From Candidatus Omnitrophota bacterium (GTDB lineage Bacteria; Omnitrophota; Gorgyraeia; 2-01-FULL-45-10), in NCBI GenBank assembly GCA_041648975.1, contig JBAZNZ010000010.1, forward strand, positions 10 through 64,009: DNA of 64,000 bases, given 5' to 3'. Below are positions 12,001-53,007 of this stretch, piece by piece (the stretch's first letter is position 1; every line of letters starts with the position of its first letter). The translations under genes were made by a program, and so were the position numbers. The notes beneath the pieces were generated by a model. It was not told the origin of the DNA, searched no databases, and was given only the letters and a program-made list of their open reading frames with translations.

Positions 12001-15000
12001 GCCCCTGGCGCCATGTGCCGTACAATTCGCATAGAATCGTGGTATCGCGCGGGAAGTATTCCCTCGTCCATCCATCGCGCCATCTCTCCATCAGTCACCT
12101 CCGCTTCGAAGAACATCCCTTCAGCCACCCATGAGAATTCGCGGCCCGGCCCTTTAAGAAGACGCGCCTCCAGCTCCTCGTCGGAAAGATTTTTAAGATC
12201 CGGGTTCCCGCGCGCCCATCCGAAAAATTCGTCTCTATCTTTCCATGACCAGAAGAGCCCCGCCGACTCTTCGCTAAAAATGAGCGGCGAGTCGGAGGCA
12301 AACTGGTTCGTGACAAAGTCGAGATCGCACTTAAGGCCTTTCGGCTTAAGCCTCTCCCGCACAAAACGCCTGAACCCTTCGTTGGTATTATCGGAAGCGA
12401 TAAGCCTTGGGTCTATCTTATAGTCATAGACGTCGTATTTTGAGCCGCTTTCCCGCGTTGCTCCCGGGCTCTCCTTGCCGGATGCGACATCGCGCTCATG
12501 CCACTCGCGAGCCATAGCTTTAGAAAGCGGGCTCTCCTGCCAGACGCCCTTAAACCATATATGGCCGGCCCCCAATTCATAGGCATACCAGTCCCATATA
12601 TCCTTTATCAACTTCGGGTCACAGTGCAGATATCGGGGATTAAGGTGCAGGCGTTTAAGTCCGCTGCTATCGTCTATTATCTTCGCTGGAACGCCATCCC
12701 CGAGATTCTGGTCCATGACCACATCCGGAATCTTGTCAAGAGTCGTCCCGAACGCCCGGGCAAGTCCGTGGGCGTCTACTTCAATAATAAGCTTGTCCGA
12801 ACGCTCAGAGGCCCTTACGGCTTCGCATAAACAAACTATAAGATCTTCCCGCTTATCTTGGACAAGAAAGTTGTCATCAATATAGAGCGTCTCATCGGCA
12901 TACACCGCTTCAACGGGCATCTTCGCGAATCGAATCCTGCTCCTGGCGTAAAGATCGGCTAGAAGCATCACGGCGCCATTATCTCCGCCGATGCGGCTTT
13001 TCGCCTCGGCGAGGACTGCGGCGAAATCGCTCTGGGCTTCCTGGTTTAACTCTATCTCTTTGCCCATGCCGCTTCGAATATCCGCCATTGCCGCGCCGAT
13101 ATTATCCGGCTTGAATCGGCAATATCCGATTACGGCCGACTTTGCCCTCACGTTTCCTGCGCCGGCAAGGGGAGTATCCGACTCTAGCCTTCCGAGCCCC
13201 CAGAGCACGGAAGCGTTTGACCACGCCTGCCTCCAGCACCCTTTGGGGTAATTCTTCTTACCCTCTCCGCCGGGGATTTGCGATGCCTCCGCATCAACGA
13301 GTTCCGGAGAGCCTCCGTTAAAGAGGTAGTCACCGCCCGTATACGGATCGCGCGCGAGCTCCATGCACTCATCCACCATTTTCGCTTTAGCCTCTTCCTT
13401 CGTCATATATCCGTATTCGGCCGCGCATAACATATAGAAAGGATAGAGCCACGGCCAACCGGTTCCGTTGTGATATGCCTTATCCCGATCTTCCTGTGGT
13501 TTATCCTTATCGTAATATCTGTAATAATACTCCCCGTAACCTTTGGGCCAGCCGATGACCTTGCCCTCTTCGTTATCGCGCGTATCCTCTACATACATCT
13601 TTACAGGCGGCGCGAGACTGCGCAAAGCTCCCGTTCCCGGAATAAGCAGGCGGTCGCGCGTTGATTCCACTATCCGTTTAGCGTGTTCGCCGGCCGCAAG
13701 GCCGAAATATACGACGAATATCTGGTTTGGCCTGACGCATGGGTCGCGCCTATTTTCCTGTTTCGATTGCTCCGCCGTCTGGAAACCCTCGGTCCCGAGG
13801 ATGTCGAAGACCGTGCCCTCTTCCTCGTTCCAGAAATATTCATCGAAATTATTCCGGATTTTTTCGGCGGTCTTCCTATATTCTGTCCTATTTTCAGGGT
13901 CTAATTCCCTCATCCTGTTCAGGGCATTGAACCATAGCGCCTGTATCTCGACCGGATATCCCTGGCGCAGGGTATTTTTGGTATCCATCCAGGTAAATCT
14001 GGCCGGACTATAGATGAAACCTGTCGCCGCATCGGCATGAACGCTTGACGGGTCATCGCCTGTGGTAGAGTATCTGGTCATGATAGCACGAAGAACGTCG
14101 CTCACCTTCCTGTTGTTTTCGCCTACTGCCATATCCAGGATCGCTATATCGTTAAATTTGTCGATGTGCCTGTAAATGGCCTCGATGAACCATAATGCGG
14201 CGTCCGACGATTCATACTTGCCGTGCACATTCGGGATAAGCCCATCTTTTTCCCATCGGGCCCATTTTAACAGGATCGCTCTAGTAGTATCGAACCGGCC
14301 GGTCTCGATGGCCCCAAGAAGAGATATCATGCTGTCACGGCCCCATTCCTGATGAGGAAAATTCGGAACGCCGGCTTCTATCGCGGCCAACCCTTCGCCA
14401 TCTATGAAAACGCGCTCAATAAAAGAGTCCATCATTCTTGCCTCAAGAGCTTTCTCTTTGTTTATTGTTATCTCAAATTCATGTTTCCGGCCGGGCTCAA
14501 GTTCGTAATAGATACTGCCGTCGGGGGAAATATTCTCCCCGGGTATAAACATTACTTCGCTTCCGGTGGAAAGATCCACATGCCTGGACGGCTGCGATAC
14601 ATCTACCCCCAGATGGTGAAGTTTTAAGGGGGCAATGCCGGACTTGGCCCGGTCCGAATGGTTCACAACGGACAGGCGCACCCTATCACCGTCTTTCTGC
14701 CATCTGGCCGCGATCAATATACCGTCGGAATCCGATATGATCCTGGATTCGGTAAATGTCCCATCAGCGGCCTGCCCTACCAGCTGCTGGCCCGCTGCCA
14801 TACCGACCGCAAGTTTCAGCAGCCTTGCGATGTCGCGGTTATAGAAGCCGTGACCGAGGGTTATGGCTGTGACGAGGGCTGCGGATATGGTTATGAATAT
14901 AGATATGGCCGTTACATGGGGTAAAAATAGGAACGGAATGATATATATGCTTCTCAAAAAAGTGCCAAGCCCTAAGATGGTGAGTATCTTTAAGGCGAAG

Positions 15001-18000
15001 TCCTTGGTTAATTTGGGAGGCGCGCGGGTGAGTTTACCGCTCTTATCGTATTCGTAGACTCCGCCCATATGGCCGATTGTAAATAATAAAACGGTCGCAG
15101 CCGAAATGCATGCGAATATACCTGTGTGATCATAACCTATTAAATACTGTGCTATACCTAACATACCGCCTATGATGGCCTCCTCGCGTAAACCGCATAC
15201 AAAAGCGATATTTTTATCCTGCCATCCCCTGCCCCGCAAATACGCGATGACAGGCGCAGCCTTTTCAGCATTTATCCTACCTTCTGTCTTGATCTTATTC
15301 CCAATATAACCCGGCGAACAGATGTTCAGGTCGGAGTCCGGAGGCACGGCGAAAAGATCCTTTTTGCCCGATGCGACAATAACACCGTCTGTCGTCTCAA
15401 CCTCTATATGCGCGTCGTAATGGCCCGGTACTCGGGCGGCCCAGTCGTTATGCGTCCATTTTTCATCTCCGGCGGGAAGCCCGGCGCTGACTACGCATTT
15501 CGTCATCGGCACTTTGACTTCGTTGCCGCCTGCAGAGACTACCATATTGACAGACTTGACGTCACCCCGAACATACGCATCTACGAGGAACGGCTCGCCG
15601 ACAACGCGTATCTGCTGAGTCTGCGGCTCTACATTGAGGATCTCTGTCACGCCTGTTTTATGTTCAGGCGGCTTTCTAAAGGATTTGAGATGCATGAGCA
15701 ATTTTACCGCTTCAGTCGCGCGTGCGGTCGTCTGATGCGCTTCTGCGCCGCCAACCCGCTTCAAGTTTCTCGCGGCGCCCAATAGGTCCTCCACCGTGAC
15801 GTCGCCCGGCAGCCTCATCTCCCACTGCGCCGTCTGCACACCGGGGCGGTTCAGCCTGTATTCATCTGTAAGGCCCAGTATATCGAGCCAGTTAAGCACT
15901 ACCATGCTTCCGGGCGAGGCGTATATCATCTCCAGTATCTTCTGGTGGACCTCCGGCGTGAACGCTCTGTAGCTCCCTTCCGGGCCGACAAAACGACTGT
16001 CTTCCGTTTTCCATTTCTTTATGAGCGCAGTCTTCTGAGCTTTAAGATCGGGATTACCATCCATCTCCTCTTCCCACCTCGTCCTGATGGTGCATGAATC
16101 TGAAACGCTTCCCGTTACGAACGCGTTAGGCAGGTGCTTTGACGGGTGGAACATATCACCGGGATCAAGCCCCCATATCACAGGAGTAAGTATCGAGCCG
16201 CCCAACCGGCGTGTCGACTGGTTGATATTTTCGGGAAGCGCGCCGAGCGTCTCCCATATCTCGACCATGCCTTCCTCCTGGGCGAACTTCAGGAATTCCG
16301 ACAGGACACTCTCGCCTTTCGCGAGCTTGAAATAACCCACCAAAACGCTGTCATTGGCTTGCGGCGGAAGCGCGCCGTCTTCAGGGAAGAGGTATTGCAC
16401 CATGAAGCCGCCGTCTTTGAGCATATCGCTCGGCGTAAGCCGTATGAAATCCCACATCGGCTCGCCTTTAAATACCTTCTTCTCGACAATATCCTCCCTG
16501 ACGCGCGGCGAGCCTGGCGGGAGCATTTCGCCGTGCTGGGCCTGCGGAACCATTCTCCCCATCTTTATCATATTATCAGGCCGTAAATTTCCGTGCTCAT
16601 CAAAAAGGAGCTGTAATGCGTCTTCGGGTAATCCCGGATGTTCTCCGCGTTGTCTCATATCCAAAAGCTTACCTTTAATAAGCCCCATGACTTCTTCACA
16701 CGCTTTCTTTTTAGACTTCTTTCCGGCAAGAACCTCTTGCCGTATCGCCTCTATCTTTTCGAAGAGGCCGAGTTTCTCAAGCGTCATATCTTCATCTATG
16801 TCCTGACTTATATGATAAGTACGGTAATATCCCAGGCCGTGGTCTTTGCGGTTATACATAAAACCGAGCTCTTTATACAACATGGCGTTGGCCTTAAGAA
16901 ACTCGAGCGTTGCGGGATTATCCCAGTCGAACGGATAGAACTGCCAGTGCTGACCGGCTGGATATGCCCCTTCGGGCGGGACGCCTTGCACGGTAAGGCG
17001 CCGGTAGCCGTTCTCTTTTTTCAATCCGAATACTTCGGGGTGAAGCCACGTATCTGCGCCGCCGAACGCGAACGGATGGTCTATGGCGAATTCGACGCCC
17101 TGTCTTCTGCCGTATCCCATAAGCTCTTCGAGCTGGCGGCGCGCCGCGAACTGGACGAATAACTGGAACTCTATCTCCTTGGCATGCCGCTGTCTGGCCC
17201 TCTCGATGGCCGGATTCGGCTCGCCTGTCCGTCTCGTCAGTCCGTAATCGCTTAAACCCTTGTCGTAATCATTCCATCTTCTCCAGTCCCATCCGCGCAT
17301 GTTGTTATTCAATAGCCCTTCGGTTTTAAGCTGACGATAAAGTATATGGTCGCTCAACTCCGAGCCGTTCTCCCGCAAGAATCGCTCATATTCGGCGTAT
17401 AGCGGATTTGATTTATCGTCTTTAAAATTACCCCAGACGCGCCTTAAGCAGTCGAGCTTTAATTGCGCCACCCTATAATGGTCCACCCTCTGCGCCGCAT
17501 TAAGCCTGGCGATCTCTGCCTGATTGTCCTTTATAAAATCGGACCCATCCTGCGCAGGATAATCTCTTAAGAATGCGGGAACGCTAAGATATTTAGGGTC
17601 AATGAGCTTGGAGCTCTCCATAGAATAAGGCGAGTTGGAATAAGAATCGGAGACCATGATGGGAAACCACTGGATGATATGCTGCCCCATCTCAGCGTTA
17701 AAATCGACCAGGGGCTTTACTGTATCGAAATCGAGCACCCCCCAGTCCTGCCTCGAACGGCCCTGCAAAAGCGGCATGAAATTTCCGTCTACACGCCGGC
17801 CCGCCTTGACGGGCGAGACAAATTTTTGCGAAACCAGGGCCTGCGGCTGCGAGGCGGTTCCGGAGGTTATTTTGCGCAGGTTCAGAAAATAGGCGAAGAA
17901 TATCGCAAGCGTGCTTCCCGTGAGGCAGGCCAGAAAAACACGGATGTAGACGTCCGAAACCAGCTGTATTCCGACATGACGCAGAAAATCGCCGCCTACT

Positions 18001-21000
18001 TTCCATAAGAAAGGTCTCTGTATGCGTTCCCTCACTTTTTGGACAGAAAATTCTTCTGCGCGTTCGGATCTTTCGCCTTTATAAGATACATTGTGGATTA
18101 TCATAGACACAACCGCATACCAGATCGTAACGACTATGGTGCAGCACGTTGCCAAAATAACTTTCATAAAATACGGCGTCGGCGACGCATAAACGTAATA
18201 TAGGAATGGCCCATTAAGCACGCCCACAAGAAGGCCCATTCCGAACACCTGGTTTATGTCGACTTTCCTGTTCGCGGAATACTGCGAGGAGAAATCTATA
18301 AGCATATTTGAAACTACGGTCATTATTGTGGAAAAGACGACCTGGTAATAGGTAAACGAGGTGAAATAAAGTCCTATAAGCCCTATTACAGAGACAAATA
18401 CAATCGGAATAATGAGACGCTTATTCAGCGTCTCGCCGGGCAGTGTCACCGAATATGACCAGCTCCTGTTTGGAAGCACGAGTTTAACCAAAAATTCCGC
18501 TATTACCTTTAACGCGGACGTGCGTACTTGCGGAGAAACAGGTTGATCGGTACCTCGAAACTGCGCTATCTCGCGCACCGACCTCTGCCCCGGAATGCTG
18601 TCATCCTCCTTGGCCATGTCCGGAGATTCGCCCTTGCGGCGGGGGACAGCTTTTCCCGCGACCGGGCCGGTTTCAGCGGGTTTTTTATATACCGTGATTA
18701 TATCGACCGGTTTGTTCGGGACCATCTGATTGCTAAGGGTATAAAGCTTCTGTTCATGCCGCAGGCCTTCAAATCCCTCCGTAATCAATATCGAGTCCTC
18801 GATAAGCGCCGCTCTCTCCTTCTGGCCGGCGAGCTTCCATTCATCGACCGCTTCAAGTTCATAATAATCGTCTGTGAATGCTATGAATAGCGCTCCTCCG
18901 GACTTAAGCACCCGGGCGATCTCCTCAAATAGCATGCGGTAATTTTTGGGCTCAAGATAGGCCATTCCGCTCGTTATCATAACGACATCGAAGCGCCCGT
19001 CCTCAAAATCGAGCCTTTGGTTTTCATTAAGATCCTGAACCACAGATGCCGTGAGTCGCCTATTGCCGGCCAATTCTATCCTGTTTAAACCGATACCTAC
19101 GACCTCCTCCACCGGTATCGAGCCGGGAATATACGTATTATATCCGCTAAACAGGTCAAGCACTTTTAATGGCCGGCCGGAGCTTCCGCGCGGCAATGAC
19201 TCCCTGGCTTTCTGTAATATTATCCTTTCGGCGGGCTTGACAAGATATGATCGGGTCCTAATCTCCCGGACAAAGCTTGAGGAAGGACGTTTCCGGCCGG
19301 ACTGGCTCATATCGTCTGCCATGTCCGGCACCTTACCCTTGCGCCGCGGTTTGTTCGCCGCCGATCTGACTTGAGCAAGTAAAGCCAATACCGGCGGACC
19401 GCCGAACCACCTCGAAAGTGTTGAGCGCCATGACACCGCCTCATGCAGCTTGTCGAGCGACCACCTGGCCCATACGCCGACGTTACCATCTTCGGCAGCC
19501 GCCTCTTCCAGGGCGCTGAGCGTGTCCTTTATATCGGACTGGCTCATCCCTTCGCATACGTACGAGAGCGCTTCAGCTGCGCTCCTCCTGACAACGGCCG
19601 GCCTGTCGGACCGCAGGATATCGATGAACTTTATCTTCGCCGCCGCCCTCAACGGGTCTGCCGGGTCCACCTTGAACGTGAAGACCCTTCCGAGGACGAA
19701 TAGCGTGTTCGCGAGCTCGTCATCTTTCAAGCTATCGAGTTTCGCCAATTCTAAGGACGCGTCGATATTGCCGTAATATACCTTGTCATGCGCTATCTCC
19801 GAAGCCGCGATTATCAGAGCGTATTTTTTCGGTACCGCTCTCTTCGTATATATGGCCGCCCTCTGGGCTATGACAGGGTTTGAAGCGCCTTCCTCAAGCA
19901 GCTTCTTCTTCTCCACCCTGATCTTATTTGAAAGCTCCTGCATTATCTTATAAGGATGCGTCTTGTAGCCGCCTGCCTTATACATCGCAAGTATCGTCTT
20001 TGTGATAGAAGTAGAATAATCAGATATGGCATCCAGGACATGGCTCTTCAGTCCTGTAAATACCTTCATGTAATAATGGATCACCTCTTCGGTGGAGGTG
20101 TATATGCCGCCGCCGTTCGCGACAGGGCCCGGTATATAGAGAATTCCCATCTCGTGAAGAATGTTCTCGAGACCGCTCTCGAACGCGTTGTTCGACCCCT
20201 CGACTATGAGCTTCGCCCTTATCCTTGATATATTGTTCTTCTGTTTTGTAAATATATTAGACCCCGCCGCGAGCACAAGCGCCGTGCAATCCTTATACAG
20301 GATCTCGTCCGGGTCACCGTCATATCTTTCGACGCCCTCGCCTTGATAAGCCTTGGCCAATTCAAACTTCTCGCCGTTCTCGAACATCTGACGCAGCCTC
20401 ATCAACTCATCGATATCGAGGCCCTTTGCGGAATAGACGGCTCCGAACTTGTCCGAGACACCTGTTATCTTGAAGCCGAGCCTCTTATATTCGGTAAGAA
20501 GGAGTTTTACAACCCCGCTTCCTACATCGCCGAAGCCCTGGATTATTACCGTCTTATTATTTTCATCTATCTTTACCCCGTGATGCGCAAGCGCTTCAGT
20601 ATCTGAAATTGCTACGGCAAGCGAGTCAACGACTCCACGGCTTGTAACCATCCATGGCATATGCGGAAGGCTTCCCATAGCCTCGGGCCTGCTTGTGGTG
20701 GCAAGTATAGAGCGCTTACCGAGGGGCTTCAGGATCTTATTACGGATTACTCTTTCCCGGAATCGCTTATCGGCCTCATCCTGCAGCCACGTCATCTCTG
20801 TTTCGCCCATATCCATGTCCGGGCCGGCTATGTAAAGGCCGCACAACATGCCTGACGCTATGGATGAAGCCACCCAATTCCGTATCACGCTCTCTTTGTG
20901 CGCGCCCGGAACGGCCAGGAAGACTGTTTTGCCGCCGTCAAAGAAGACGTCCCACAAGGGATTTTTGTCTCCCATCGCTTCCGCAAGCCGCGCGGATTCG

Positions 21001-24000
21001 GCGAGGACCTGGCCTGATTTATTCGCAAATTCGGCTTCACTTGTGAACTGATACCACCGGCACCCGCCCTTCGCCAGCGTAGTGCCTGCGTCGCCCGAAC
21101 AGCTGTTCACTGAAGTAACGACAAGAGAGCCGTCTTCCATCACGGTAATAGCGACCCTAAAGGGCTTCTTATCCTTATACCAGCTGAACATCTCTGAATT
21201 AGCGGAGTCGAACATAAGAGTAAGCGGCAGTTTTCTTTTAACACAATACCTGTAAGCGTCGGCGTCTTCTATGAGGGCTTTTCTTAATATATCTTTTGCG
21301 TTGGGAAGATCGGCGGGAAGAAGGCGAGTCGCACAGGCTGTCAACGCCTCATCCAATTTTTGTTCCACTGTAAGCGCTAACTCTTTCTGCGCGAATAAAA
21401 CCCGGTTCACCGCCCGGAACGCCGCAAACGCCGCTGCTGCTCCGGCGGCCGCGCCGAAGAACCAGAATAACGGCCCGAATATTACAGCGATATAGATATC
21501 ATCCAGAAGCCCCGGCCCACGGCACAATCCGATCACCGCGAGGGACGACATAAGCGCCGCGCCTATCGCGGCAGATACGCCTATGAACTTCAGTCCGATG
21601 CGCTCCCTTAGCAGGATCAGCTTATCCAGCGGCGATTCGGTAACCGGCGAATCTTTGCGCTGCGCCTGTCCGTCCTCATCCTCCGCCGCCATGTTCGGGC
21701 TCTCGGTCTTTGCCCTGACAAACATCCCGGCAGCATGCCTTCTCTTCGCGACCGTTACGACAACCGTCTGATCGGCGTCGGACTCTTCCATTTGGGTGGC
21801 TATCTCAAGACGGCCGTTATCGTCTATCTCCCGCCTAACTACATCGGCGGTCAGATCGCTCTGTCTGCTGTCTAATATTTCAATAAATATCGCCATGCCC
21901 GGCGGCGACAAAAGTTGAGCAATGTTGCTGAATAGCATGCTTCTTGCGTTTACCGGCTGCGGATCAAGCGCGCCTATCCTCTTCTCCTGGTTCATTGAAA
22001 ATTCGTCATAACCGCTCGCGATCCTTCCTGCCTCATGCAGCGTCCTATTTACGGATATGACATCGAAGCCGCCGTTCATCCGTTTCGGAAATGCCCGGTC
22101 CGTTATGTCGTCCTCGACTATCTCCACATCGAGCGGACCGATAGCGCCTGATGACCTATAGTCATTTACGAGCCTGAGATACTCGGCCAATATTGTCGCG
22201 ATGAATGAGTTATTATCGACAAGCGCGATCCTCTTCCCCGGCTGCGCGACGCTTATCCAATATAATCCTTCGAGTCCCGCTCCGAACAGCGCAGCCCGGC
22301 CTGATTCTATCATCTCTTTTCCCAGTGGTTCGGAATCGGGTATCAATATTTCCGGATTGCCGCCCGTCATCATCGGAATGTAATAATTCCGGTAAACATA
22401 CCGCGCATAGGCGCACGCGAAAGATATGCGGTATCGTTCCAGCATATCAGGCTTTCTATATAGAACATTAGCCAACGTGGTCAATAGACGAGATAAGGCT
22501 TTCGAGCCGTCATCGTTTTGCATCTCTTCCGACAGAAGATTGAGCGTAGAAAACCTGGGCTTAAACTGGTGCGGAAGGTATAAAGGCGCTGTCAGGATAT
22601 AACTTATGGCATCCGGGTCGATCCTGCGAAGGGTATCCTTCTCCCCTTCGGATAATTCGGCAATCTCTTTTATGACATCCGCGAAATCTTCGCCTCCGGC
22701 GGCGTGGCTCACGTAGATGTGCGCGCCGTTTAAAGTACCGGATGATATATGAAGTTCTGAGTTGCTCCCCACGGCGTTGCTTACAAGCGATAAAATTATC
22801 GAGGATATGCCTCTGTCCTGGTAATTCACTCCGCCGACATCTGCGCGAATGTCCACAACTCCCAAATCGAGGGTCAGATTGCCGTTTCCGTAGTTGGTCT
22901 TGAAACCGAATTCCATAGTCCCAACTACCGCGCCGTTCGATCGGCGTAATATCTCGATAGTTATCGGCCCCGGAGCCTCGACACCCCTTAAATTGAGCCT
23001 GAACCGTTCGCCTGTATTATCGGCGAATTCATCGTCCTGCAGTTCCAGCACCTTTGCGATGCTCAGCAGGCGGCTTATTAAACGGCCGTCGTGCTCTATC
23101 GCATCTTCGGGATGCTCTGCCCCGGCTATAACGCCGTGGTCGTTTATAATCCTGCCACCCGGTAGTTCATATCCGGGTTTTACTATATGCTGGCACTCTT
23201 CCAGGAGCAGTTGCGCAAGGTCTTCCGCCGATAACTTATTCAGCAAGATCTCCCCTAACCACATTGTCGGCTTAAGGCCGTGTATCTCTTCGCTAAAACC
23301 TGTTCTCGTACTGCATAATATATTCCTGCCTTTATCATTGCCTATAATCACGCAACCTGCAATAACGCTTATAGAGATATTGCGCGCCGTTTCGATGATA
23401 TCGACCCGCTGTTTAGCCGTAAGGTTTCGGAAATTCGGCCTCTCCGACAGTATCATTGCCAGCCGCCCGGGCTCTTTAGCCTCCCGCATCTTTTTGAAGA
23501 GGCCGTTTGCGGCGTATTTTTCCTGCAACGCCTGCGATTTCTTGTCGGCGGTCGGCTTATAAGGCAGCCTCCTGATTCGTTTTGCCGTATCGGTATTGTG
23601 GTCCAGCTCAAAGGCATGTTCCGCACTTATATGATAGCGTAAGAATGGATTAGTATGATCTACATCGTCTCCGGGTTCATCCTCGATATCGGGTAATTCA
23701 TGCCGCCGTAGGGGCGAATACGGCCCGCGGCCTTTTGCGCGATACCCTGCGCCGGGAATAGCCATGTTAGGAGCGACGCGTTTCCTGCGGCGCTCTTCGT
23801 TCTGTAAAGAAATTAGGCCGATGACACGCGACCTGTCCAGCTGCGTGGCTATAGCAAGCGGCATGATACAGGCCGCAACACAAACCGTCCGCCTTATTCC
23901 GGGATAGGACTCTGCCATGCGCTTTGCGACGCCGGCAAGGTTCAGGATGCTCTCAGGCGAGCCGAGGCCTCCGTATGCGAGATGGAGGAGCAAAGCTGCG

Positions 24001-24713
24001 ATCGTAATAGATACGGCTGCGCTGACAGCAGGGACAATAGCGCGCCGCAGGTTGAAGAAGGGCCATGAAAAGCGCCTCCCGGGCTCGGCGCGGCTTGCGG
24101 GAATTGCTTTAGTCTCGATGGCGGGCAATTTCTCTTCAGGTTCTTTTGCCGCTACTTGTTTTTCCGCAGGCAGAGATTTAGCCGGCGCAACCTGCTCCTG
24201 GGGCTCGACCTTGCCGGCTTCCGGAGACTCGAAGAGCTGCTCATATAGCAGCTCTCTCCGGTTAACCGGTATCGATACCATTACCTTCTTATTACGATAT
24301 TTGTTTATATTAGATTCTAAAGGATCAAACTTAAAATACCGGAGGGTATAACCTGAAAAATTTATGAGGACTTCGTCATAAAATATATTGCAGACCATTC
24401 CATTGTCCTGAAGCCACTCGTGGTCCTGTTCTGCCATCGTCCTGACAGCCTTCTTGACATCGTCCAGGGTTAGGTCAGCCTTTTCCTTTCCAGAAAGCCT
24501 CTGGATAAGCACGTCAATGAACCTGACGCTTGCCTTAGGACCGGAATCTTTGAGCTTCAGGAAAGATTCAACCGCTACTTTGTTATTCCGGGGCTTTCTT
24601 TCGCTGAAAAAGTCGGGGTTCGCCCAGGTGATATCCTGGGCAATAAAAGTGATGACAAGGATGGCTGCGATTATCCTTATGGGCCGGTTGAATCTTCTGG
24701 ATGGTGTTTGCAT
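1..24713 (-). CDS. Giant multidomain membrane-associated protein, N-terminal >8,237 codons inside the window; stop codon lies beyond the window start. Mosaic of alpha-glucan enzyme modules (GT35, GH77, GDE, 2x GH13-like) plus ELFV-dehydrogenase-like and SAM-MTase-like modules and several TM clusters.
   Basis: ATG at 24713-24711 with an in-frame TAA 5 codons upstream. The frame (codon top coordinate = 2 mod 3) was hand-translated at 24713-24580, 20759-20520, 14219-14100, 12050-11970, 4379-4140 and 140-1 and is open everywhere. The track lists no minus-strand ORF in this frame, as expected if the frame never closes inside the window. The + strand ORFs here are short, mutually overlapping and R/V/F/S-rich, typical of antisense. 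N-terminus MQTPSRRFNRPIRIIAAILVITFIAQDITWA looks like a signal anchor. Confidence 0.8.
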   Translation of the reverse strand, partial: MQTPSRRFNRPIRIIAAILVITFIAQDITWANPDFFSERKPRNNKVAVESFLKLKDSGPKASVRFIDVLIQRLSGKEKADLTLDDVKKAVRTMAEQDHEWLQDNGMVCNIFYDEVLINFSGYTLRYFKFDPLESNINKYRNKKVMVSIPVNRRELLYEQLFESPEAGKVEPQEQVAPAKSLPAEKQVAAKEPEEKLPAIETKAIPASRAEPGRRFSWPFFNLRRAIVPAVSAAVSITIAALLLHLAYGGLGSPESILNLAGVAKRMAESYPGIRRTVCVAACIMPLAIATQLDRSRVIGLISLQNEERRRKRVAPNMAIPGAGYRAKGRGPYSPLRRHELPDIEDEPGDDVDHTNPFLRYHISAEHAFELDHNTDTAKRIRRLPYKPTADKKSQALQEKYAANGLFKKMREAKEPGRLAMILSERPNFRNLTAKQRVDIIETARNISISVIAGCVIIGNDKGRNILCSTRTGFSEEIHGLKPTMWLGEILLNKLSAEDLAQLLLEECQHIVKPGYELPGGRIINDHGVIAGAEHPEDAIEHDGRLISRLLSIAKVLELQDDEFADNTGERFRLNLRGVEAPGPITIEILRRSNGAVVGTMEFGFKTNYGNGNLTLDLGVVDIRADVGGVNYQDRGISSIILSLVSNAVGSNSELHISSGTLNGAHIYVSHAAGGEDFADVIKEIAELSEGEKDTLRRIDPDAISYILTAPLYLPHQFKPRFSTLNLLSEEMQNDDGSKALSRLLTTLANVLYRKPDMLERYRISFACAYARYVYRNYYIPMMTGGNPEILIPDSEPLGKEMIESGRAALFGAGLEGLYWISVAQPGKRIALVDNNSFIATILAEYLRLVNDYRSSGAIGPLDVEIVEDDITDRAFPKRMNGGFDVISVNRTLHEAGRIASGYDEFSMNQEKRIGALDPQPVNARSMLFSNIAQLLSPPGMAIFIEILDSRQSDLTADVVRREIDDNGRLEIATQMEESDADQTVVVTVAKRRHAAGMFVRAKTESPNMAAEDEDGQAQRKDSPVTESPLDKLILLRERIGLKFIGVSAAIGAALMSSLAVIGLCRGPGLLDDIYIAVIFGPLFWFFGAAAGAAAAFAAFRAVNRVLFAQKELALTVEQKLDEALTACATRLLPADLPNAKDILRKALIEDADAYRYCVKRKLPLTLMFDSANSEMFSWYKDKKPFRVAITVMEDGSLVVTSVNSCSGDAGTTLAKGGCRWYQFTSEAEFANKSGQVLAESARLAEAMGDKNPLWDVFFDGGKTVFLAVPGAHKESVIRNWVASSIASGMLCGLYIAGPDMDMGETEMTWLQDEADKRFRERVIRNKILKPLGKRSILATTSRPEAMGSLPHMPWMVTSRGVVDSLAVAISDTEALAHHGVKIDENNKTVIIQGFGDVGSGVVKLLLTEYKRLGFKITGVSDKFGAVYSAKGLDIDELMRLRQMFENGEKFELAKAYQGEGVERYDGDPDEILYKDCTALVLAAGSNIFTKQKNNISRIRAKLIVEGSNNAFESGLENILHEMGILYIPGPVANGGGIYTSTEEVIHYYMKVFTGLKSHVLDAISDYSTSITKTILAMYKAGGYKTHPYKIMQELSNKIRVEKKKLLEEGASNPVIAQRAAIYTKRAVPKKYALIIAASEIAHDKVYYGNIDASLELAKLDSLKDDELANTLFVLGRVFTFKVDPADPLRAAAKIKFIDILRSDRPAVVRRSAAEALSYVCEGMSQSDIKDTLSALEEAAAEDGNVGVWARWSLDKLHEAVSWRSTLSRWFGGPPVLALLAQVRSAANKPRRKGKVPDMADDMSQSGRKRPSSSFVREIRTRSYLVKPAERIILQKARESLPRGSSGRPLKVLDLFSGYNTYIPGSIPVEEVVGIGLNRIELAGNRRLTASVVQDLNENQRLDFEDGRFDVVMITSGMAYLEPKNYRMLFEEIARVLKSGGALFIAFTDDYYELEAVDEWKLAGQKERAALIEDSILITEGFEGLRHEQKLYTLSNQMVPNKPVDIITVYKKPAETGPVAGKAVPRRKGESPDMAKEDDSIPGQRSVREIAQFRGTDQPVSPQVRTSALKVIAEFLVKLVLPNRSWSYSVTLPGETLNKRLIIPIVFVSVIGLIGLYFTSFTYYQVVFSTIMTVVSNMLIDFSSQYSANRKVDINQVFGMGLLVGVLNGPFLYYVYASPTPYFMKVILATCCTIVVTIWYAVVSMIIHNVSYKGERSERAEEFSVQKVRERIQRPFLWKVGGDFLRHVGIQLVSDVYIRVFLACLTGSTLAIFFAYFLNLRKITSGTASQPQALVSQKFVSPVKAGRRVDGNFMPLLQGRSRQDWGVLDFDTVKPLVDFNAEMGQHIIQWFPIMVSDSYSNSPYSMESSKLIDPKYLSVPAFLRDYPAQDGSDFIKDNQAEIARLNAAQRVDHYRVAQLKLDCLRRVWGNFKDDKSNPLYAEYERFLRENGSELSDHILYRQLKTEGLLNNNMRGWDWRRWNDYDKGLSDYGLTRRTGEPNPAIERARQRHAKEIEFQLFVQFAARRQLEELMGYGRRQGVEFAIDHPFAFGGADTWLHPEVFGLKKENGYRRLTVQGVPPEGAYPAGQHWQFYPFDWDNPATLEFLKANAMLYKELGFMYNRKDHGLGYYRTYHISQDIDEDMTLEKLGLFEKIEAIRQEVLAGKKSKKKACEEVMGLIKGKLLDMRQRGEHPGLPEDALQLLFDEHGNLRPDNMIKMGRMVPQAQHGEMLPPGSPRVREDIVEKKVFKGEPMWDFIRLTPSDMLKDGGFMVQYLFPEDGALPPQANDSVLVGYFKLAKGESVLSEFLKFAQEEGMVEIWETLGALPENINQSTRRLGGSILTPVIWGLDPGDMFHPSKHLPNAFVTGSVSDSCTIRTRWEEEMDGNPDLKAQKTALIKKWKTEDSRFVGPEGSYRAFTPEVHQKILEMIYASPGSMVVLNWLDILGLTDEYRLNRPGVQTAQWEMRLPGDVTVEDLLGAARNLKRVGGAEAHQTTARATEAVKLLMHLKSFRKPPEHKTGVTEILNVEPQTQQIRVVGEPFLVDAYVRGDVKSVNMVVSAGGNEVKVPMTKCVVSAGLPAGDEKWTHNDWAARVPGHYDAHIEVETTDGVIVASGKKDLFAVPPDSDLNICSPGYIGNKIKTEGRINAEKAAPVIAYLRGRGWQDKNIAFVCGLREEAIIGGMLGIAQYLIGYDHTGIFACISAATVLLFTIGHMGGVYEYDKSGKLTRAPPKLTKDFALKILTILGLGTFLRSIYIIPFLFLPHVTAISIFITISAALVTAITLGHGFYNRDIARLLKLAVGMAAGQQLVGQAADGTFTESRIISDSDGILIAARWQKDGDRVRLSVVNHSDRAKSGIAPLKLHHLGVDVSQPSRHVDLSTGSEVMFIPGENISPDGSIYYELEPGRKHEFEITINKEKALEARMMDSFIERVFIDGEGLAAIEAGVPNFPHQEWGRDSMISLLGAIETGRFDTTRAILLKWARWEKDGLIPNVHGKYESSDAALWFIEAIYRHIDKFNDIAILDMAVGENNRKVSDVLRAIMTRYSTTGDDPSSVHADAATGFIYSPARFTWMDTKNTLRQGYPVEIQALWFNALNRMRELDPENRTEYRKTAEKIRNNFDEYFWNEEEGTVFDILGTEGFQTAEQSKQENRRDPCVRPNQIFVVYFGLAAGEHAKRIVESTRDRLLIPGTGALRSLAPPVKMYVEDTRDNEEGKVIGWPKGYGEYYYRYYDKDKPQEDRDKAYHNGTGWPWLYPFYMLCAAEYGYMTKEEAKAKMVDECMELARDPYTGGDYLFNGGSPELVDAEASQIPGGEGKKNYPKGCWRQAWSNASVLWGLGRLESDTPLAGAGNVRAKSAVIGYCRFKPDNIGAAMADIRSGMGKEIELNQEAQSDFAAVLAEAKSRIGGDNGAVMLLADLYARSRIRFAKMPVEAVYADETLYIDDNFLVQDKREDLIVCLCEAVRASERSDKLIIEVDAHGLARAFGTTLDKIPDVVMDQNLGDGVPAKIIDDSSGLKRLHLNPRYLHCDPKLIKDIWDWYAYELGAGHIWFKGVWQESPLSKAMAREWHERDVASGKESPGATRESGSKYDVYDYKIDPRLIASDNTNEGFRRFVRERLKPKGLKCDLDFVTNQFASDSPLIFSEESAGLFWSWKDRDEFFGWARGNPDLKNLSDEELEARLLKGPGREFSWVAEGMFFEAEVTDGEMARWMDEGILPARYHDSMRIVRHMAPGALSLALINYSKGQNRGKIADILGSIADMTCEGGVRADLADWIYWNRYFDEKLKPWGISREAAGRMMPREIWDDLMAGLREKHPGLLILGEVYGENNRVFFREMGMRQGGCAVSYNKEFADTLSGGTAQAVRGYLFGAGGTSAQARDATMYTNHDEGVGLERLGSMEHVRAAAAICAMGGGYMLIPFIEFLPIERPPTREKTAEKNWRDSAVYIPEYPFENLDIGLAEESNSFTHRPHRGVQRRWAHAESVRKSQPDVAVALRSDGVTHTIVVPWYVDTLENSGLIPMVRHTGQEDVLEVVNDSDVPTETTICLDRIFGPGAAGDSMEGELSNVVLSTGTKVFFGPRTLVIELPKYGRCRLVFRQTEAYKNGRESADALLAEAYTRARPESEGGDGAAWASNFYSHHKDEISFAEFKAVFEDVLERLLFSNQDIIRRGTAWIISHEEFLGPVAFLSAADNQQLENLLQGSGDRSVLPLALDHKFAGLGAIIKFFELVSAAKQRWIIAQLMSAAMAVDDINLRTQIMKEVFSSMPAALPLIAEAGRLKMPAGTEEALMQRRYKQIPMMRAGKIKDMITPAVAAKVFVRKRESSDGEDIYEITEEDTGITLNDIARQNAWVEAENTCDIAGAQPLRPRLINLKVKSEESMDAFALIADGEVYLLFLGDNHTGAILPESFGFLPEAGAIEGFSGTYLLFDINTKRSERTTDKRQLTAEPLPVSIPQGGQVFHLIPAFDKERPGIMQVMVRFLGGLDRLRQNLERLLESIIIPQGNTIYLVGVHREGEIGKMLNDSKLSPPDHLYTRDIGGERVQYRVVVRDTPKARKNETASAFSVSDMADPDVIDKVKTCSQWLAGRKITTAVDITGHLTPDSPLVVKHPYWCVPHTNVPVQWRADGIPEGLSEQQILETQGVSEGPRSAAFLLYVPCNDPNDPLVVKLKERGFVSGIEKIGGKPTGRIRVLISHNRTHRAMTSTAALDLRHPKVHRYLLNTIRAWIESGVTVFRIDMADRFPIELLAEFRKEFPQARFITEHYNLFGALIDIFRKSGIDEFYDYSELWTRLRDQFSKEDSAAPVQRWLYNAQKYLTIGIFVNFVSNHDEDVALSMYEGNREKYLCDLAITAFLPGYFMFNFPDALGFMMPGYRDRHTGELRHDIRRHATYEKFRQLVKETNEGRPLDGETYEALPYDTSIAGGVANVINAKGDPIFRKGVMLNAPPQDECVYFTRSYQGRTAIVVANRSPEPRTLEITKYLNMPDVEKTVAEFLPWEVRVYFVDGTTLHERDIVNGSMLYRRARQLFGDGTNHAWALQLCDECRAWQAPLNEVRRAVRLMLRYGDENMKKGSLWILTGADGGFKQEFDYAEEGNFAIVRDSLHTGDMKAGIALGQLVADAVIVSGLRERILAKITHAFGPDLGGLSIPQITNLLHLEKALLEQEHGPEWAGKFLESRKGAFGNETFFASCYQAVAAWSRSAVQADRDAAGWMLYDPQSELSSRFRDYYLARISAVKDRLEHDDIQAIEALKGLIDEVIEIPGLARRVSSEMVNAVCSGIAHFNEHEQLRTLYSAEAMLLRQTLNIAWARAIIENHKYDMTEPGRYSAFKSLVLEWNLEKDDALHDAAQWILFDPASAFSAIFMREHTDTLAGFGERLKQGDQSALDGLREYLAAAEKMPGLNECLIDKAVGTVRMVIGHIKADSDLKALLGRLLDMEADLLRQKYQAGWAREFVSGHRNHWQEENFLEVFRAVILTYNKSDNKDTVDAAQWMLFKAESPFSEKFFDKYKRMIDDMRESVKAEDAAASGTLEVLLHDAKEIAGLNRRLTDEVISRAKTGAPGEDTIFYCQLAARLLFVAANQVVAGTITRFFARQDVQMPGAARRRLETISKDLAVVEGLVVNEEGAAVPFREELAAVLADPARLNFDNYLRLESAYRKYIEGTGIQRQASRKLGLKDDERVVYLSLEYGLSEWLRIYGGGLGILSGDTIRGLNDRYGPNTFVGVGLAYKNGYFEQHIVTAEDHANDHHRNVPVGSQVEINVPTDFSKLGEIVQETDALTGKKNDIVLKIEAGCDKYIYAKIWRIRVGRVEMYLLDTNIPENHTKDDAHPRAKELTNNLYDRGKDASGSIVPAHKDELRFMQELLLGVGGMRAVASCGMRPALVHMNESHSAFAGLELISQEQKRRSAGAPAGSRFEDAKRAAHDRMIFTTHTPIEAGNEQFDEELFRDYFEHYANLNGLNYEDIKKIFLHPSRRFNNQDMVCMADAALELSCRANAVAKSHARVSRTLYKNGNKIIAITNAVHRRFWQMKPMQAFLEGLLKHAKSLGYLKRMAMDRLNEEQIRQLIGYADPDKYLAMRKAAKKAAIEDLRQKRPASRLEGLDDNALTIVVARRAAPYKRLDLVLKRIETLRAEATKRGLKLQIVFAGKAHPADDKGKDIIRSINEFILSDRNKGDVFFVENYDIDVAKHLASIADVWLNNPIPPLEASGTSGMKAGLCGALSVSTPDGWVLEAENAWDEEKNQPKPLSEIKGAAFLFNESSIKVKDDKDIESANRRNEETADNMLKALTEVMEVYANNKNRWAELSKNAVYDTMAHFTMGRFAGDYERDMYLPSLRESRALAAATAAKGLVAPSTLPITQSISRWWYNRVLRLNLGEEELLRVTALEIAPWFEQLIKVGIPFGLFAILERLFPAIGLFRTGILTSIIGIGGLIFIILHLKSMRAPPVRIGTVPTSVDSTVRGQSLFKQLAAPAIISIFDTIAVFFLPTSPWIAIGVTAISHFIVNFIIMRLRMRGHEIGYATLQATAKVGVVSVVPSLRLNVDNRIVDDNFMEAVHYFNSEVLVSSKPSGLPLEPLTWEKVLDVVELFRGDRKNKEYSDEIRTERLRTLKERLPVDTDILKIANTRFDNENDLFDAAVDLYIYIIGRQILIDHAKKGEGRAHAKPGLPGFDTVREYRPVNAFNSYLPHPAGAHNRMAYFIVSYLFRNNGYKGALFTRREEFGNSGLFGYYFVTNNASAKPRLMNFFKAHMKKEGPDMAGDFAGSIQSDFFAALKQEGLLLPKYARQECIITSNILAEILSARFNIPIGGNDSVRIEIIPGYYKYKDALPVYHQWIAVYTGDEEPSLYIDASFGQFESTYKDTVIVRPYFEKSKNLIDSRSDFLDTIATLGMDLDGINELSLRSEEVGAAPKIVIRYNDYLHAERIRSGKWVYPFEQTIRSAMDRIKIRFARPWQPATLPLTQSIGRWWYNKVLKLNLGEEELLRGTAIEIAPWFEQILKIGAPFGLFAVLEYLFPAISIFRTGILTSIIGIGGLIFTILHLKSMRAPPDKIFKQSIAPAIVSIFDTIAVFFLASSPWIAIGITAVSHFIVNFAVTRLRQKGIGVGYAVLPADMNELWDKPAIMPGSIFGTGWFASLAVSPLIEELLRALFYVNGGWVGFFYISATLIAVHYFNKSAYIELYKKMNNGEEPPGGADMYQRVFGIPVAVMLGTLFVAALSCFTGIKNTFPDIAANFMIAHLTGNIFAKLYSLRYPRDILMPASLAPVTTRQAHDLYHSNISQEMRKISDTLDARLKIYGLRLGSRPHRGGIMHYDIEKAIKDIVEEERRRMLRAGKVDDDVDGQEIVLFTGLHPVKLWLEDGIVVILNPGFDVDHAGRNELTVYARKRSKVIHEKSELKGWMHFAESEGIASEEDIVEKSVLGDRIMEWANKRDAQGMLVNKDKAAEARKRLHQSACRKELEYLLTNEWGLFPTASGEIMRRLPNAAIEYIIDNGLKIEILRLGSPARNPDLLDISPDGKTIDISYKCLAAHTPQWFEHRILNYIHFRRLLISYDHSLEYACAVEFWAEYQTFKALEKTNPDGAGLTPDLKKYFNACTAWVTPQLDEETRMRIVTENIYGDVTDRLEDALVEEGETRRNAGLAIEDLDADYIVNIIAFDDLDLELKEKLEELEMETEDLGIGNNLDPYIASVPQNRASLKGDTLSSAAQQGPQSPDMASFDELRTPSRASRGMA
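1890..4200 (-). repeat. Duplicated ~170-aa four-helix transmembrane module inside the giant ORF (two copies about 1.8 kb apart)
   Basis: The antisense + ORFs 1861..2439 and 3550..4224 are about 75 percent identical to each other. Sense strand: TLPITQSISRWWYNRVLRLNLGEEELLRVTALEIAPWFEQLIKVGIPFGLFAILERLFPAIGLFRTGILTSIIGIGGLIF (about 4150-3900) versus TLPLTQSIGRWWYNKVLKLNLGEEELLRGTAIEIAPWFEQILKIGAPFGLFAVLEYLFPAISIFRTGILTSIIGIGGLIF (about 2350-2100). Confidence 0.6.
4215..6200 (-). other. Domain of giant ORF: GT35 alpha-glucan (glycogen/maltodextrin) phosphorylase module
   Basis: VVYLSLEYGLSEWLRIYGGGLGILSGDTIRGLNDRYGPNTFVGVGLAYKNGYFEQ (N-terminal GGLGxLAGD block), MNESHSAFAGLE, RMIFTTHTPIEAGNEQF and the PLP-lysine block EASGTSGMKAGLCGA (codon at 4557-4559). 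The C-terminus was translated codon by codon at 4379-4215. Confidence 0.7.
6650..7650 (-). repeat. Three tandem ~145-aa (about 435 nt) helical repeats inside the giant ORF
   Basis: DAAGWMLYDPQSELSSRFRDYY, DAAQWILFDPASAFSAIFMREH and DAAQWMLFKAESPFSEKFFDKY, anchored at about 7582, 7171 and 6740. Confidence 0.5.
8550..9450 (-). other. Domain of giant ORF: GH13 catalytic module 2
   Basis: GRIRVLISHNRTHRA (region I DxVxNHxS), DLRHPKVHRYLLNTIRAWIESGVTVFRIDMADRF (region II GFRxDxA), ARFITEHY (region III Glu), FVSNHDED (region IV). Confidence 0.55.
11400..12700 (-). other. Domain of giant ORF: GH13 (alpha-amylase superfamily)-like module 1
   Basis: GAGHIWFKGVWQESP, YDVYDYKIDPRL (GYDxxDYxxIDPxFG block), DLDFVTNQFASDSP (region I, His replaced by Gln), ARYHDSMRIVRHM (region II candidate), LILGEVYGEN (region III), YTNHDE (region IV). 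Confidence 0.5.
13150..14800 (-). other. Domain of giant ORF: glycogen-debranching-enzyme-like module (GDE_N plus amylo-alpha-1,6-glucosidase GDE_C)
   Basis: Translation checked codon by codon at 14219-14100 (KYESSDAALWFIEAIYRHIDKF...). Also FTWMDTKNTLRQGYPVEIQALWFNAL, AYHNGTGWPWLYPFYM and CWRQAWSNASVLWGLG, which are hallmark GDE_C blocks. Confidence 0.65.
15780..17770 (-). other. Domain of giant ORF: GH77 4-alpha-glucanotransferase (amylomaltase-like) module
   Basis: PIMVSDSYSNSPYSMESSKLIDP (matches GDSPYQSFSAFAGNPYLID), YGRRQGVEFAIDHPFAFGGADTWLHPEVF, YNRKDHGLGYYRTYHI (IDH region) and the C-terminal VVLNWLDILGLTDEYRLNRPGVQTAQWEMRLP (matches PMQDLLGLGSEARMNTPG..GNWRWRL). Confidence 0.7.
17900..18480 (-). 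other. Polytopic transmembrane cluster (about 5 helices) between the MTase and GH77 modules of the giant ORF
   Basis: RLIIPIVFVSVIGLIGLYFTSFTYYQVVFSTIMTVVSNMLIDF...LLVGVLNGPFLYYVYAS...VILATCCTIVVTIWYAVVSMIIHNV...LACLTGSTLAIFFAYFLNL. Comparable clusters occur at about 14850-15300, 21300-21760 and 23950-24160. Confidence 0.5.
18850..19230 (-). other. Domain of giant ORF: class-I SAM-dependent methyltransferase-like module (second)
   Basis: RPLKVLDLFSGYNTYIP (motif I region) ... LDFEDGRFDVVMITSGMAYLEPKNYRMLFEEIARVLKSGGALFIAF (motifs II-IV), translated from 19190-18860. Confidence 0.55.
19990..21180 (-). other. Domain of giant ORF: Glu/Leu/Phe/Val dehydrogenase-like module
   Basis: Hand-translated motifs DGGKTVFLAVPG, IAGPDMDMGETEMTWLQDE, TVIIQGFGDVGSGVVKLL and IVEGSNNAFESGLENILHEMGILYIPGPVANGGGI match the GDH-family GGGKGG / GPDxDxGxxEM / QGFGNVGS / EGANGP...NAGGV blocks. 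Confidence 0.6.
21950..22650 (-). other. Domain of giant ORF: class-I SAM-methyltransferase-like module (first of two)
   Basis: GAGLEGLY...RIALVDNNSFIAT...EDDITDRAFPKRMNGGFDVISVNRTLHEAGR...LLSPPGMAIFIEIL follows the motif I / II / III / post-III order of Rossmann MTases. Weaker than the second copy. Confidence 0.35.
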
Positions 24714-52908: not shown

Positions 52909-53007
52909 TCTATTCTGCACTTGTTCAGGTTAAAGCCATAGAATCCCTTGACTTTTGGGTTCTATGGCTTTGGCTTCTATCGGCCGGCACAAGATCGGCG
53001 CAATTTT

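Follow-up and report, generated by a model that had tools for sequence, protein, structure and literature searches.

Introduction

The giant proteins of the Omnitrophota are the longest predicted proteins known, and their insertion into the membrane, the side on which their enzymes lie and their cleavage are published open questions. TMHMM and DeepTMHMM disagree on such proteins, some predicted localisations are implausible, and whether giants are cleaved has been left open, with possible cleavage by C39 or S8 peptidase domains being discussed (West-Roberts et al. 2023, bioRxiv 10.1101/2023.11.21.568195). Among 916 long Omnitrophota proteins analysed with DeepTMHMM, 94% were membrane-targeted, transmembrane (TM) residues made up ~2% of the chain, and the TM-densest giant had 331 helices in 122,534 amino acids (aa), i.e. 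about one per 370 aa; the same work defines a 'multi-enzyme metabolic' class and regards insertion at such length as untested (bioRxiv 10.64898/2026.06.07.730766). Here, we analyse a giant open reading frame (ORF) on the minus strand of a 64,000-nucleotide stretch of DNA (the window) from a Candidatus Omnitrophota bacterium (GenBank assembly GCA_041648975.1, contig JBAZNZ010000010.1, forward-strand positions 10 to 64,009), which codes for several enzyme modules separated by hydrophobic clusters, suggest that these clusters staple the chain to one face of a membrane and show that three of them are copies of a conserved, protease-like module.

The ORF extends from an ATG at position 24713 to position 3 of the window without an in-frame stop, i.e. 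over 8,237 aa (24.7 kb), and the same gene is called as 11,109 aa on the ENA contig k141_1611482, where it is still open at the contig end; both lengths are lower bounds, and at least 2,900 residues lie beyond the window. With the TM-rich ('multi-enzyme metabolic' or Archaeovorin-type) giants of the Omnitrophota the protein shares an ORF of >10 kaa (thousand aa), a signal-peptide-like N-terminus, many unrelated enzymes and an ambiguous topology. Hydropathy scans yield ~25 TM-grade helices along the 8,237 aa, one per ~330 aa as compared to ~370 aa in the densest published giant. Judged from its sequence, the protein fits this class and the general phenomenon is already known; a sequence-only reading of the window had pointed to other giant proteins for comparison, and they do provide it. 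SecA_DEAD, C39 and dockerin domains were absent from the available 8,237 aa (Pfam, E≤0.01 for SecA_DEAD and C39), SecA_DEAD being present in 'most' published giants. The published work counts helices, whereas the even-parity clusters and the conserved Glu/His/His/Asn (E/H/H/N) module presented below are not described there.

Results

The helices are grouped in clusters termed A to F (Table 1), with one (possibly two) in A, two in B, five in C and four each in D, E, E' and F. On a Hessa-type insertion scale nine segments were found where 0.71 are expected, the maximum in 200 shuffles being three. More lenient measures, i.e. a Kyte-Doolittle (KD) hydropathy of ≥1.6 (18 segments vs 10.5 in composition shuffles) and the 'certain' class of TopPred (24 vs 12.6), fire near chance in shuffles of a chain of 8 kaa; hence, neither the KD cut-off nor the TopPred cut-off of 1.0 was counted as evidence. 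Every strong hydrophobic segment falls within a cluster, all clusters lie outside or between the Pfam domain envelopes, and none of the clusters, when scanned in isolation, matched a Pfam family at E≤10. Weaker, isolated segments at aa 1279, 4407, 5348 and 6711 lie within conserved globular regions or next to them (two, 1279 and 6711, within Pfam envelopes) and are best read as buried cores, serving as an internal negative control. The sequence-only reading had placed hydrophobic clusters between the catalytic modules and had proposed that they staple each module to the membrane; strong segments do lie at these places, between Pfam domains, with cluster F added just below the range it had covered, and the duplicated modules it had recognised at 1890-4200 are E and E', which are 70% identical in a self-BLAST. 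As far as prediction from sequence can tell, the clusters are confirmed as genuine membrane-spanning units that separate the catalytic modules.

The multi-helix clusters have even helix counts, cluster C being composed of four helices plus one orphan, S5, which follows helix 4 after a charged loop of 49 residues and is located directly upstream of the GH77 module. Loop lengths follow a short-long-short scheme (3/25/2 in D, 4/25/4 in E, 4/9/4 in E' and 6/27/7 in F). Every other loop is uncharged and only 2-9 residues in length, whereas the remaining loops and the two flanks are long and rich in Lys and Arg. In clusters B, C (helices 1-4), D, E and E' Lys and Arg account for 1/39 residues of the short loops vs 14/70 of the long ones (Fisher p=0.01), and in 20 copies of module E from various giants for 1/167 vs 92/472 (p~3e-12, the copies not being independent), so that the positive-inside analysis of the loops that had been proposed for this chain reveals a strong asymmetry. 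In line with this pattern, an AlphaFold2 (AF2) model of module E based on the family alignment (mean predicted local distance difference test, pLDDT, 79; predicted template modelling score, pTM, 0.68) is an up-down four-helix bundle with helices of 20-35 residues (7-41, 46-71, 95-115 and 120-143) and turns of 4 residues.

Related giants, referred to by their P numbers, show the same even count: from the N-terminal leader to the first module E the number of helices is even in 7/7 of them. In P0009 one copy of module E (aa 5482-5793) is split by a soluble insert of ~165 aa in the loop between helices 2 and 3, which puts this loop on the bulk (cis) side. The strain variant P0001, ~96% identical to the giant, carries a clean deletion of 45 aa that removes hairpin B and leaves the flanks unchanged. 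The GH77 homologues of P0002 and P0003 (50-56% identity) have no adjacent TM cluster, and homology begins just after S5. From the absence of hairpin B in P0001 and of the TM cluster in these homologues we infer that TM hairpins are gained or lost as units.

Even helix counts and tiny uncharged alternate loops put both flanks of a cluster on the same side, and with both flanks on the same side a cluster cannot make the neighbouring catalytic modules switch sides. The sequence patterns thus support stapling of the chain to one membrane face and speak against the earlier suggestion that the modules alternate between sides. Only the two orphan helices, aa 225-245 and 2257-2279, could change sides, which limits the chain to a single possible in/out excursion.

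Clusters D, E and E' probably do more than staple the chain passively, a point which the sequence-only reading had overlooked, as they are copies of a module with invariant Glu, His and His (plus Asn) residues. A profile built from E and E' retrieved only 17 of 1.84 billion representative proteins, all of them 700-7,388 aa long, an iterated local hidden Markov model gave 25 module copies, often two per protein, and genome scans located the module in metagenome-assembled genomes (MAGs) of Omnitrophota as well as in two MAGs labelled Planctomycetia. Twenty aligned copies (~25% identity) share just three invariant columns, a Glu and two His (E23, H68, H131); an Asn four residues past the second His (N135, N7010 in the window) and an 'A-P' ahead of the Glu are conserved in ≥90%, and 'N-x-R-A-P-P' past the first His and 'G-[YF]-A' past helix 4 are also conserved. 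Helices 1 and 2 carry the Glu and the first His, respectively, at their cis ends, and the second His lies in helix 4.

Cluster D contains the corresponding residues E3177, H3215, 'RAPP', H3288 and N3292 and matches residues 2351-2494 of P0017 (phmmer, E=6e-11); a profile of both aligns with the E family in such a way that Glu, FxxxH and RAPP coincide (hhalign, E=4.6e-5, probability 69%), and a word-seeded homologue search with this profile returned nothing. By this sequence evidence D, E and E' are copies of one rare, conserved four-helix module, with D being a diverged copy. Clusters A, B, C and F showed no significant relationship to the D and E families (hhalign, phmmer), and for cluster F neither a Pfam, PDB nor homologue match was found, a word-seeded homologue search included.

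The aromatic residue of the motif G-[YF]-[AG]-x-[LI], which is located ~5-10 residues after helix 4 (aa 7023-7027 and 7610-7614 in the window), is kept in 19/20 copies, and the AF2 model of module E shows no structure for the G-Y-A tail (last block, pLDDT 56). The motif could be a recognition or cleavage site. Four-helix clusters with Glu...His...H-x-x-x-N-like patterns were also seen in P0009 (~2903-3020), in P0011 (~532-640) and in P0012 upstream of its GH77 module; comparison with the D and E families by hhalign and phmmer detected no homology, none of them is claimed to be homologous, and they may represent several diverged subfamilies.

The arrangement of the conserved residues resembles that of CPBP/Rce1 intramembrane proteases, the core of which consists of four helices, the first carrying EExxxR, the second a His and the fourth HxxxN, with 42 residues between E146 and H188 in MrtX and with EExxR or QExxR variants in the remote members PrsW and APH-1 (PMC11980579, PMC6588880). 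In module E, too, four core helices carry Glu, His and HxxxN in the matching positions, the Glu-to-His spacing is 45 residues, and the EExxK of the family (EQxxK in the window) resembles the EExxR/QExxR of the remote members. Rce1 and MrtX have extra helices, whereas module E comprises the bare four-helix core only, and CPBP proteins are stand-alone proteins of ~200-300 aa, whereas the module sits repeatedly inside a giant multi-enzyme chain. To our knowledge, the motifs 'N-x-R-A-P-P' and 'G-Y-A' are not features of CPBP proteins.

Three other assignments were rejected. 'GEEELLR' is not the CPBP motif 1 of module E, as the family alignment puts the conserved Glu in 'APWFEQ'; cluster F does not fit a CPBP core in spacing or topology, its EE being located in a short loop only 26 residues from the His; and a bis-His haem site formed by the two invariant His residues is unlikely, since in the AF2 model they appear to be separated by ~9 residues in depth along the helices.

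Discussion

Our findings may best be explained by stapling of a multi-enzyme chain with protease-like modules to one membrane face, an explanation to which we would give about an even chance. Each cluster would insert co-translationally as helical hairpins (signal recognition particle with YidC/SecYEG), no large domain would cross the membrane, and both enzymes flanking a cluster would stay on the cis side, most likely the cytoplasm. The dehydrogenase, the methyltransferase-like module, GH77, the debranching enzyme and the phosphorylase might then form a membrane-tethered line for α-glucan turnover. The polar E/H/H/N tetrad would constitute a glutamic-protease site of the CPBP/Rce1 type facing the bulk side, where the chain lies, and the substrate of the module may be the giant chain itself or a partner anchored in the membrane.

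Several results weigh against this explanation. As to the module, the Arg of EExxxR is replaced (EExxK in the family, EQxxK in the window, i.e. Lys at +4); the best E-values with Pfam PF02517 (0.024-0.027) and PrsW (PF13367; 0.0013-0.34) all belong to matches under the gathering scores; the NCBIfam models gave nothing with the module; PDB sequence searches with the A2 and A3 profiles and with cluster F found nothing relevant; and a Foldseek search of the module E model against the PDB had a best E-value of 0.79 and did not return 4CAD (MmRce1). Pfam scans with consensus sequences of the module were not significant either. As to topology, the leader resembles a Sec signal peptide and is conserved across giants, the strongly hydrophobic orphan helix at aa 2257-2279 lacks a partner, and the single-sequence AF2 model of cluster C shows helices at a confidence (pLDDT 47) too low for its parity to be read. 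As the formal CPBP tests failed, we do not assign the module to the CPBP family, although it may work like a CPBP protease.

If modules never change sides, the side of the enzymes is set by the leader and the two orphan helices. The leader consists of RRFNRPIR, a hydrophobic core of 14 aa (IIAAILVITFIA) and QDITWA followed by NPD, with the site between the latter two read by eye; it resembles a Sec (SPase I) signal peptide, for which a positive n-region, an h-region of 7-15 residues and small residues at -3 and -1 are typical, and shows an A-x-A-type site, and the same leader is found in P0002, P0009, P0010, P0011, P0013, P0014, P0017 and P0020. Across giants its pattern is a start rich in Lys and Arg, a core of 14-16 aa and [QYN]-D-[IV]-[AST]-W-A-x-P-[DEQ], and in related giants a domain of ~110-130 aa with an 'R-Y-F-[DN]-P' motif follows; residues 14-142 of P0002 match residues 7-141 of the giant with 33% identity. 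If the leader works as a Sec signal peptide, the bulk side would be the periplasm. At odds with its signal-peptide look, the N-terminal leader domain is followed by cytoplasm-type enzymes in several giants, with no TM helix in between. In P0013 an S-adenosylmethionine (SAM)-dependent methyltransferase lies on the side of the leader domain, no TM helix following that domain, and in P0017 the same holds for a GNAT acetyltransferase, which comes after a possible two-helix hairpin.

A location of all enzymes in the cytoplasm is favoured by the positive-inside signal of clusters B, C (helices 1-4), D, E and E', by the cofactors that the dehydrogenase, the methyltransferase and the pyridoxal phosphate (PLP)-dependent enzyme need, and by the related giants, i.e. 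the methyltransferase of P0013 and the GNAT of P0017 on the leader-domain side and the even parity from leader to module E in 7/7; we consider this placement about equally likely to be right or wrong.

Alternatively, the chain might switch sides once, with the N-terminal domain (~190 aa) in the periplasm, aa 246-2256 inside and everything from GH77 onward outside, a topology that we regard as rather unlikely. Here the signal peptide would be real, helix 225-245 would return the chain to the inside and helix 2257-2279 would send it out again; S5 being unpaired, cluster C would be odd, placing GH77 and all that follows opposite to the dehydrogenase and the methyltransferase. External glucan or that of prey would then be the substrate of GH77, the debranching enzyme, the amylase-like region and the phosphorylase, working in the periplasm or at the surface, with the four-helix modules anchoring these enzymes from outside. 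The conserved signal-peptide-like leader is consistent with such an arrangement, as are the flank charges of S5, which fit an in-to-out orientation, and the parity obtained with one helix in A and five in C, by which the modules using nicotinamide adenine dinucleotide (phosphate) or SAM come to lie inside and the cofactor-free glucan hydrolases outside. Moreover, P0002 has glucan enzymes after its leader and lacks further TM helices, published predictions put most domains of giant proteins outside and a predatory role has been proposed, and the substrates of bacterial CPBP enzymes, e.g. myxosortase, are exported proteins bound for the cell surface. However, clusters D, E, E' and F would be inverted against a very strong positive-inside signal, ~5,900 residues would have to be exported, one stretch of ~3,600 aa among them, and the PLP-dependent phosphorylase would be located outside. 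By the same logic the SAM methyltransferases of P0011 and P0013, the GNAT of P0017 and a kinase-like region of P0009 (recognised by eye only) would be outside too, and the flank charges of helix 225-245 point the opposite way.

Export of the whole protein, with the hairpins inserting from outside into another membrane, e.g. that of a prey cell, and the enzymes using glucan and cofactors of the prey, is improbable. The conserved leader would suit it, post-translational insertion would require just such hairpins, of even parity and with trans loops that are short and uncharged, and reports on Omnitrophota giants describe a predatory lifestyle and nearby secretion systems; yet there are no secretion genes among the nine annotated neighbours, and it is hard to envisage how >11,000 aa with ~25 very hydrophobic helices would avoid the producer's own membrane. 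That the hydrophobic stretches are buried globular cores or low-complexity linkers is very improbable: the lenient cut-offs are indeed near chance and the four isolated segments do behave in this way, but the clustered segments number 9 on the stringent scale where 0.7 would be expected, fall in no Pfam envelope, form helices of 20-35 residues in a confident AF2 model, show a loop asymmetry of the positive-inside type and are gained or lost as units across strains and homologues. Finally, an assembly chimera or decaying pseudogene is scarcely credible, for despite the metagenomic source and the indels of the NCBI MAG copy, two further independent assemblies (ENA and Logan) are 100% identical over 2,890 aa, 24.7 kb are free of stops, catalytic motifs are intact and the same architecture recurs in many Omnitrophota giants.

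One-face stapling offers a simple and testable answer to the question of insertion, as large domains need not cross the membrane, and the parity rule narrows the question of sides to the leader peptide and the two orphan helices. The E/H/H/N module provides a concrete candidate for cleavage, names the residues concerned and delimits a family of membrane proteins that escapes the current Pfam and NCBIfam models. Neither of the two preprints on giants mentions CPBP, CAAX, intramembrane proteases or 'polyprotein', and no paper that could be searched brings Omnitrophota and CAAX together; the parity rule and the protease-like module thus appear to be unreported in the literature searched.

A more far-reaching speculation, which we consider unlikely, is that the giant is a membrane-tethered polyprotein whose E/H/H/N modules cut the chain in cis, e.g. 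at the G-[YF]-A after helix 4. In polytopic viral polyproteins, e.g. those of the Flaviviridae, TM segments lie between the enzymes, embedded proteases cut the chain, and the chain truly alternates between the sides of the membrane. The likeness lies in the alternation of soluble enzymes with membrane hairpins in one long chain and in possible cis-processing at the membrane. Viral chains switch sides, whereas the even parity of the giant argues against switching; moreover, the giant would be the product of a bacterial chromosomal gene, at least three times longer and with another type of protease, and its cleavage is only proposed. If true, individual enzymes would be set free or rearranged at the membrane by cis cleavage, viral polyprotein processing would have a cellular counterpart, and the published question whether Omnitrophota giants are one chain or many pieces would be answered.

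Other features of the window

The enzyme modules of the giant (Table 1) look like working enzymes, as the PLP-lysine motif of the phosphorylase (EASGTSGMK) and the Rossmann motif of the dehydrogenase (GFGDVG) are intact and the nucleophile Asp of GH77 aligns with that of 1TZ7. The methyltransferase-like module matches only the C-terminal half of the Pfam models and has a degenerate motif I (VLDLFSGYN). In the α-amylase-like region PF00128 scores 22.8 bits, barely over its gathering score of 22 bits, and PF16657 remains under its own. The unannotated stretch between the amylase-like and phosphorylase modules contains an internal tandem repeat (6543-7907, minus strand, aa 5603-6057) with a period of ~140 aa and 27% identity (BLAST, E=1e-30).

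Table 1. Features of the giant ORF in the window
Feature	Position (nt)	Strand	Residues (aa)	Details (GES, Goldman-Engelman-Steitz hydropathy)
Giant ORF	3..24713	-	1-8237	ORF cut by the left end of the window
Signal-peptide-like leader	24618..24713	-	1-32	hydrophobic segment aa 12-29
Conserved N-terminal domain	24291..24617	-	33-141	'RYFKFDP' motif
Cluster A	23979..24041	-	225-245	one strong orphan TM helix; KD 2.34, GES 1.82; cluster A overall nt 23835-24041 (aa 225-246 plus the weak candidate)
Cluster A, weak second candidate	23838-23891	-	275-292	
Cluster B	21417..21593	-	1041-1064 + 1074-1099	two-helix hairpin, 9-residue loop; GES 1.91 and 2.17
Glu/Leu/Phe/Val dehydrogenase module	19968..21083	-	1211-1582	PF00208 E=8e-28, PF02812
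Class I methyltransferase-like module	18864..19196	-	~1840-1950	PF08241 and PF13649, E~1e-6
Cluster C, helices 1-4	18093..18422	-	2098-2207	four-helix unit, loops of 2, 11 and 7 residues; cluster C overall aa 2098-2279, nt 17877-18422
Orphan TM helix S5	17877..17945	-	2257-2279	KD 2.06, Hessa-type sum -0.89
GH77 4-α-glucanotransferase module	15807..17753	-	2321-2969	PF02446 E=1e-58
Cluster D	14844..15185	-	3177-3290	four helices, diverged copy of the E/H/H/N module
Amylo-α-1,6-glucosidase (GDE_C) module	13203..14396	-	3440-3837	PF06202 E=6e-54
Weak α-amylase-like region	8262..9107	-	5203-5484	PF00128 E=6e-5, PF16657 E=7.5e-4
α-Glucan phosphorylase (GT35) module	4476..6035	-	6227-6746	PF00343 E=2e-24
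Module E	3618..4088	-	6876-7032	invariant E6898, H6943, H7006; N7010; cluster E helices aa 6896-7018 (nt 3660-4028)
Module E'	1860..2282	-	7478-7618	E7500, H7545, H7592, N7596; cluster E' helices aa 7498-7604 (nt 1902-2222)
Cluster F	1449..1835	-	7627-7755	four helices, short-long-short loops

By an exact match of the RimO protein, whose gene lies three ORFs upstream of the giant gene, the locus was recovered from three public assemblies. Over the first 2,890 aa of the giant, clusters A, B and C included, the copies from ENA and Logan (L001 and L002) are 100% identical to the window. The NCBI MAG copy (L003, GCA_028715235.1) belongs to a diverged strain that has kept cluster A; its giant, compared with 22700-24713 of the window, is 89.6% identical over the N-terminal ~690 aa, with insertions and deletions (35 gap positions). 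RimO is 100% identical between the assemblies, whereas the N-terminus of the giant in L003 is only 89.6% identical, which points to a much higher rate of evolution in the giant gene than in the genes next to it. The homologues of the giant and the strain variant are labelled Candidatus Omnitrophica or Omnitrophota.

The nine annotated upstream neighbours are housekeeping genes (RimO, FtsK, PNPase, LigA, RibD and others) and one GGDEF diguanylate cyclase; type II or IV secretion or pilus genes were not among them, the downstream side of the giant gene lying beyond the window. Outside the giant gene the window carries ordinary housekeeping genes, RibBA as well as RimO, FtsK, PNPase, LigA and RibD. 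A structural maintenance of chromosomes (SMC) protein of 1,765 aa (54212-59509, minus strand; SMC_N, hinge) has its Walker A P-loop split by an intein that carries a homing-endonuclease domain of the LAGLIDADG type (Pfam Intein_splicing E=2e-25, LAGLIDADG_3 E=3e-18), the junction being located between GPNGCGK and CLSGES. A second long ORF (60243-63998, minus strand) codes for at least 1,251 aa and runs off the right end of the window; a NUDIX domain is the only domain recognised in it and it has no TM helices. The GGDEF diguanylate cyclase gene (52948-54195, plus strand) is located near this ORF.

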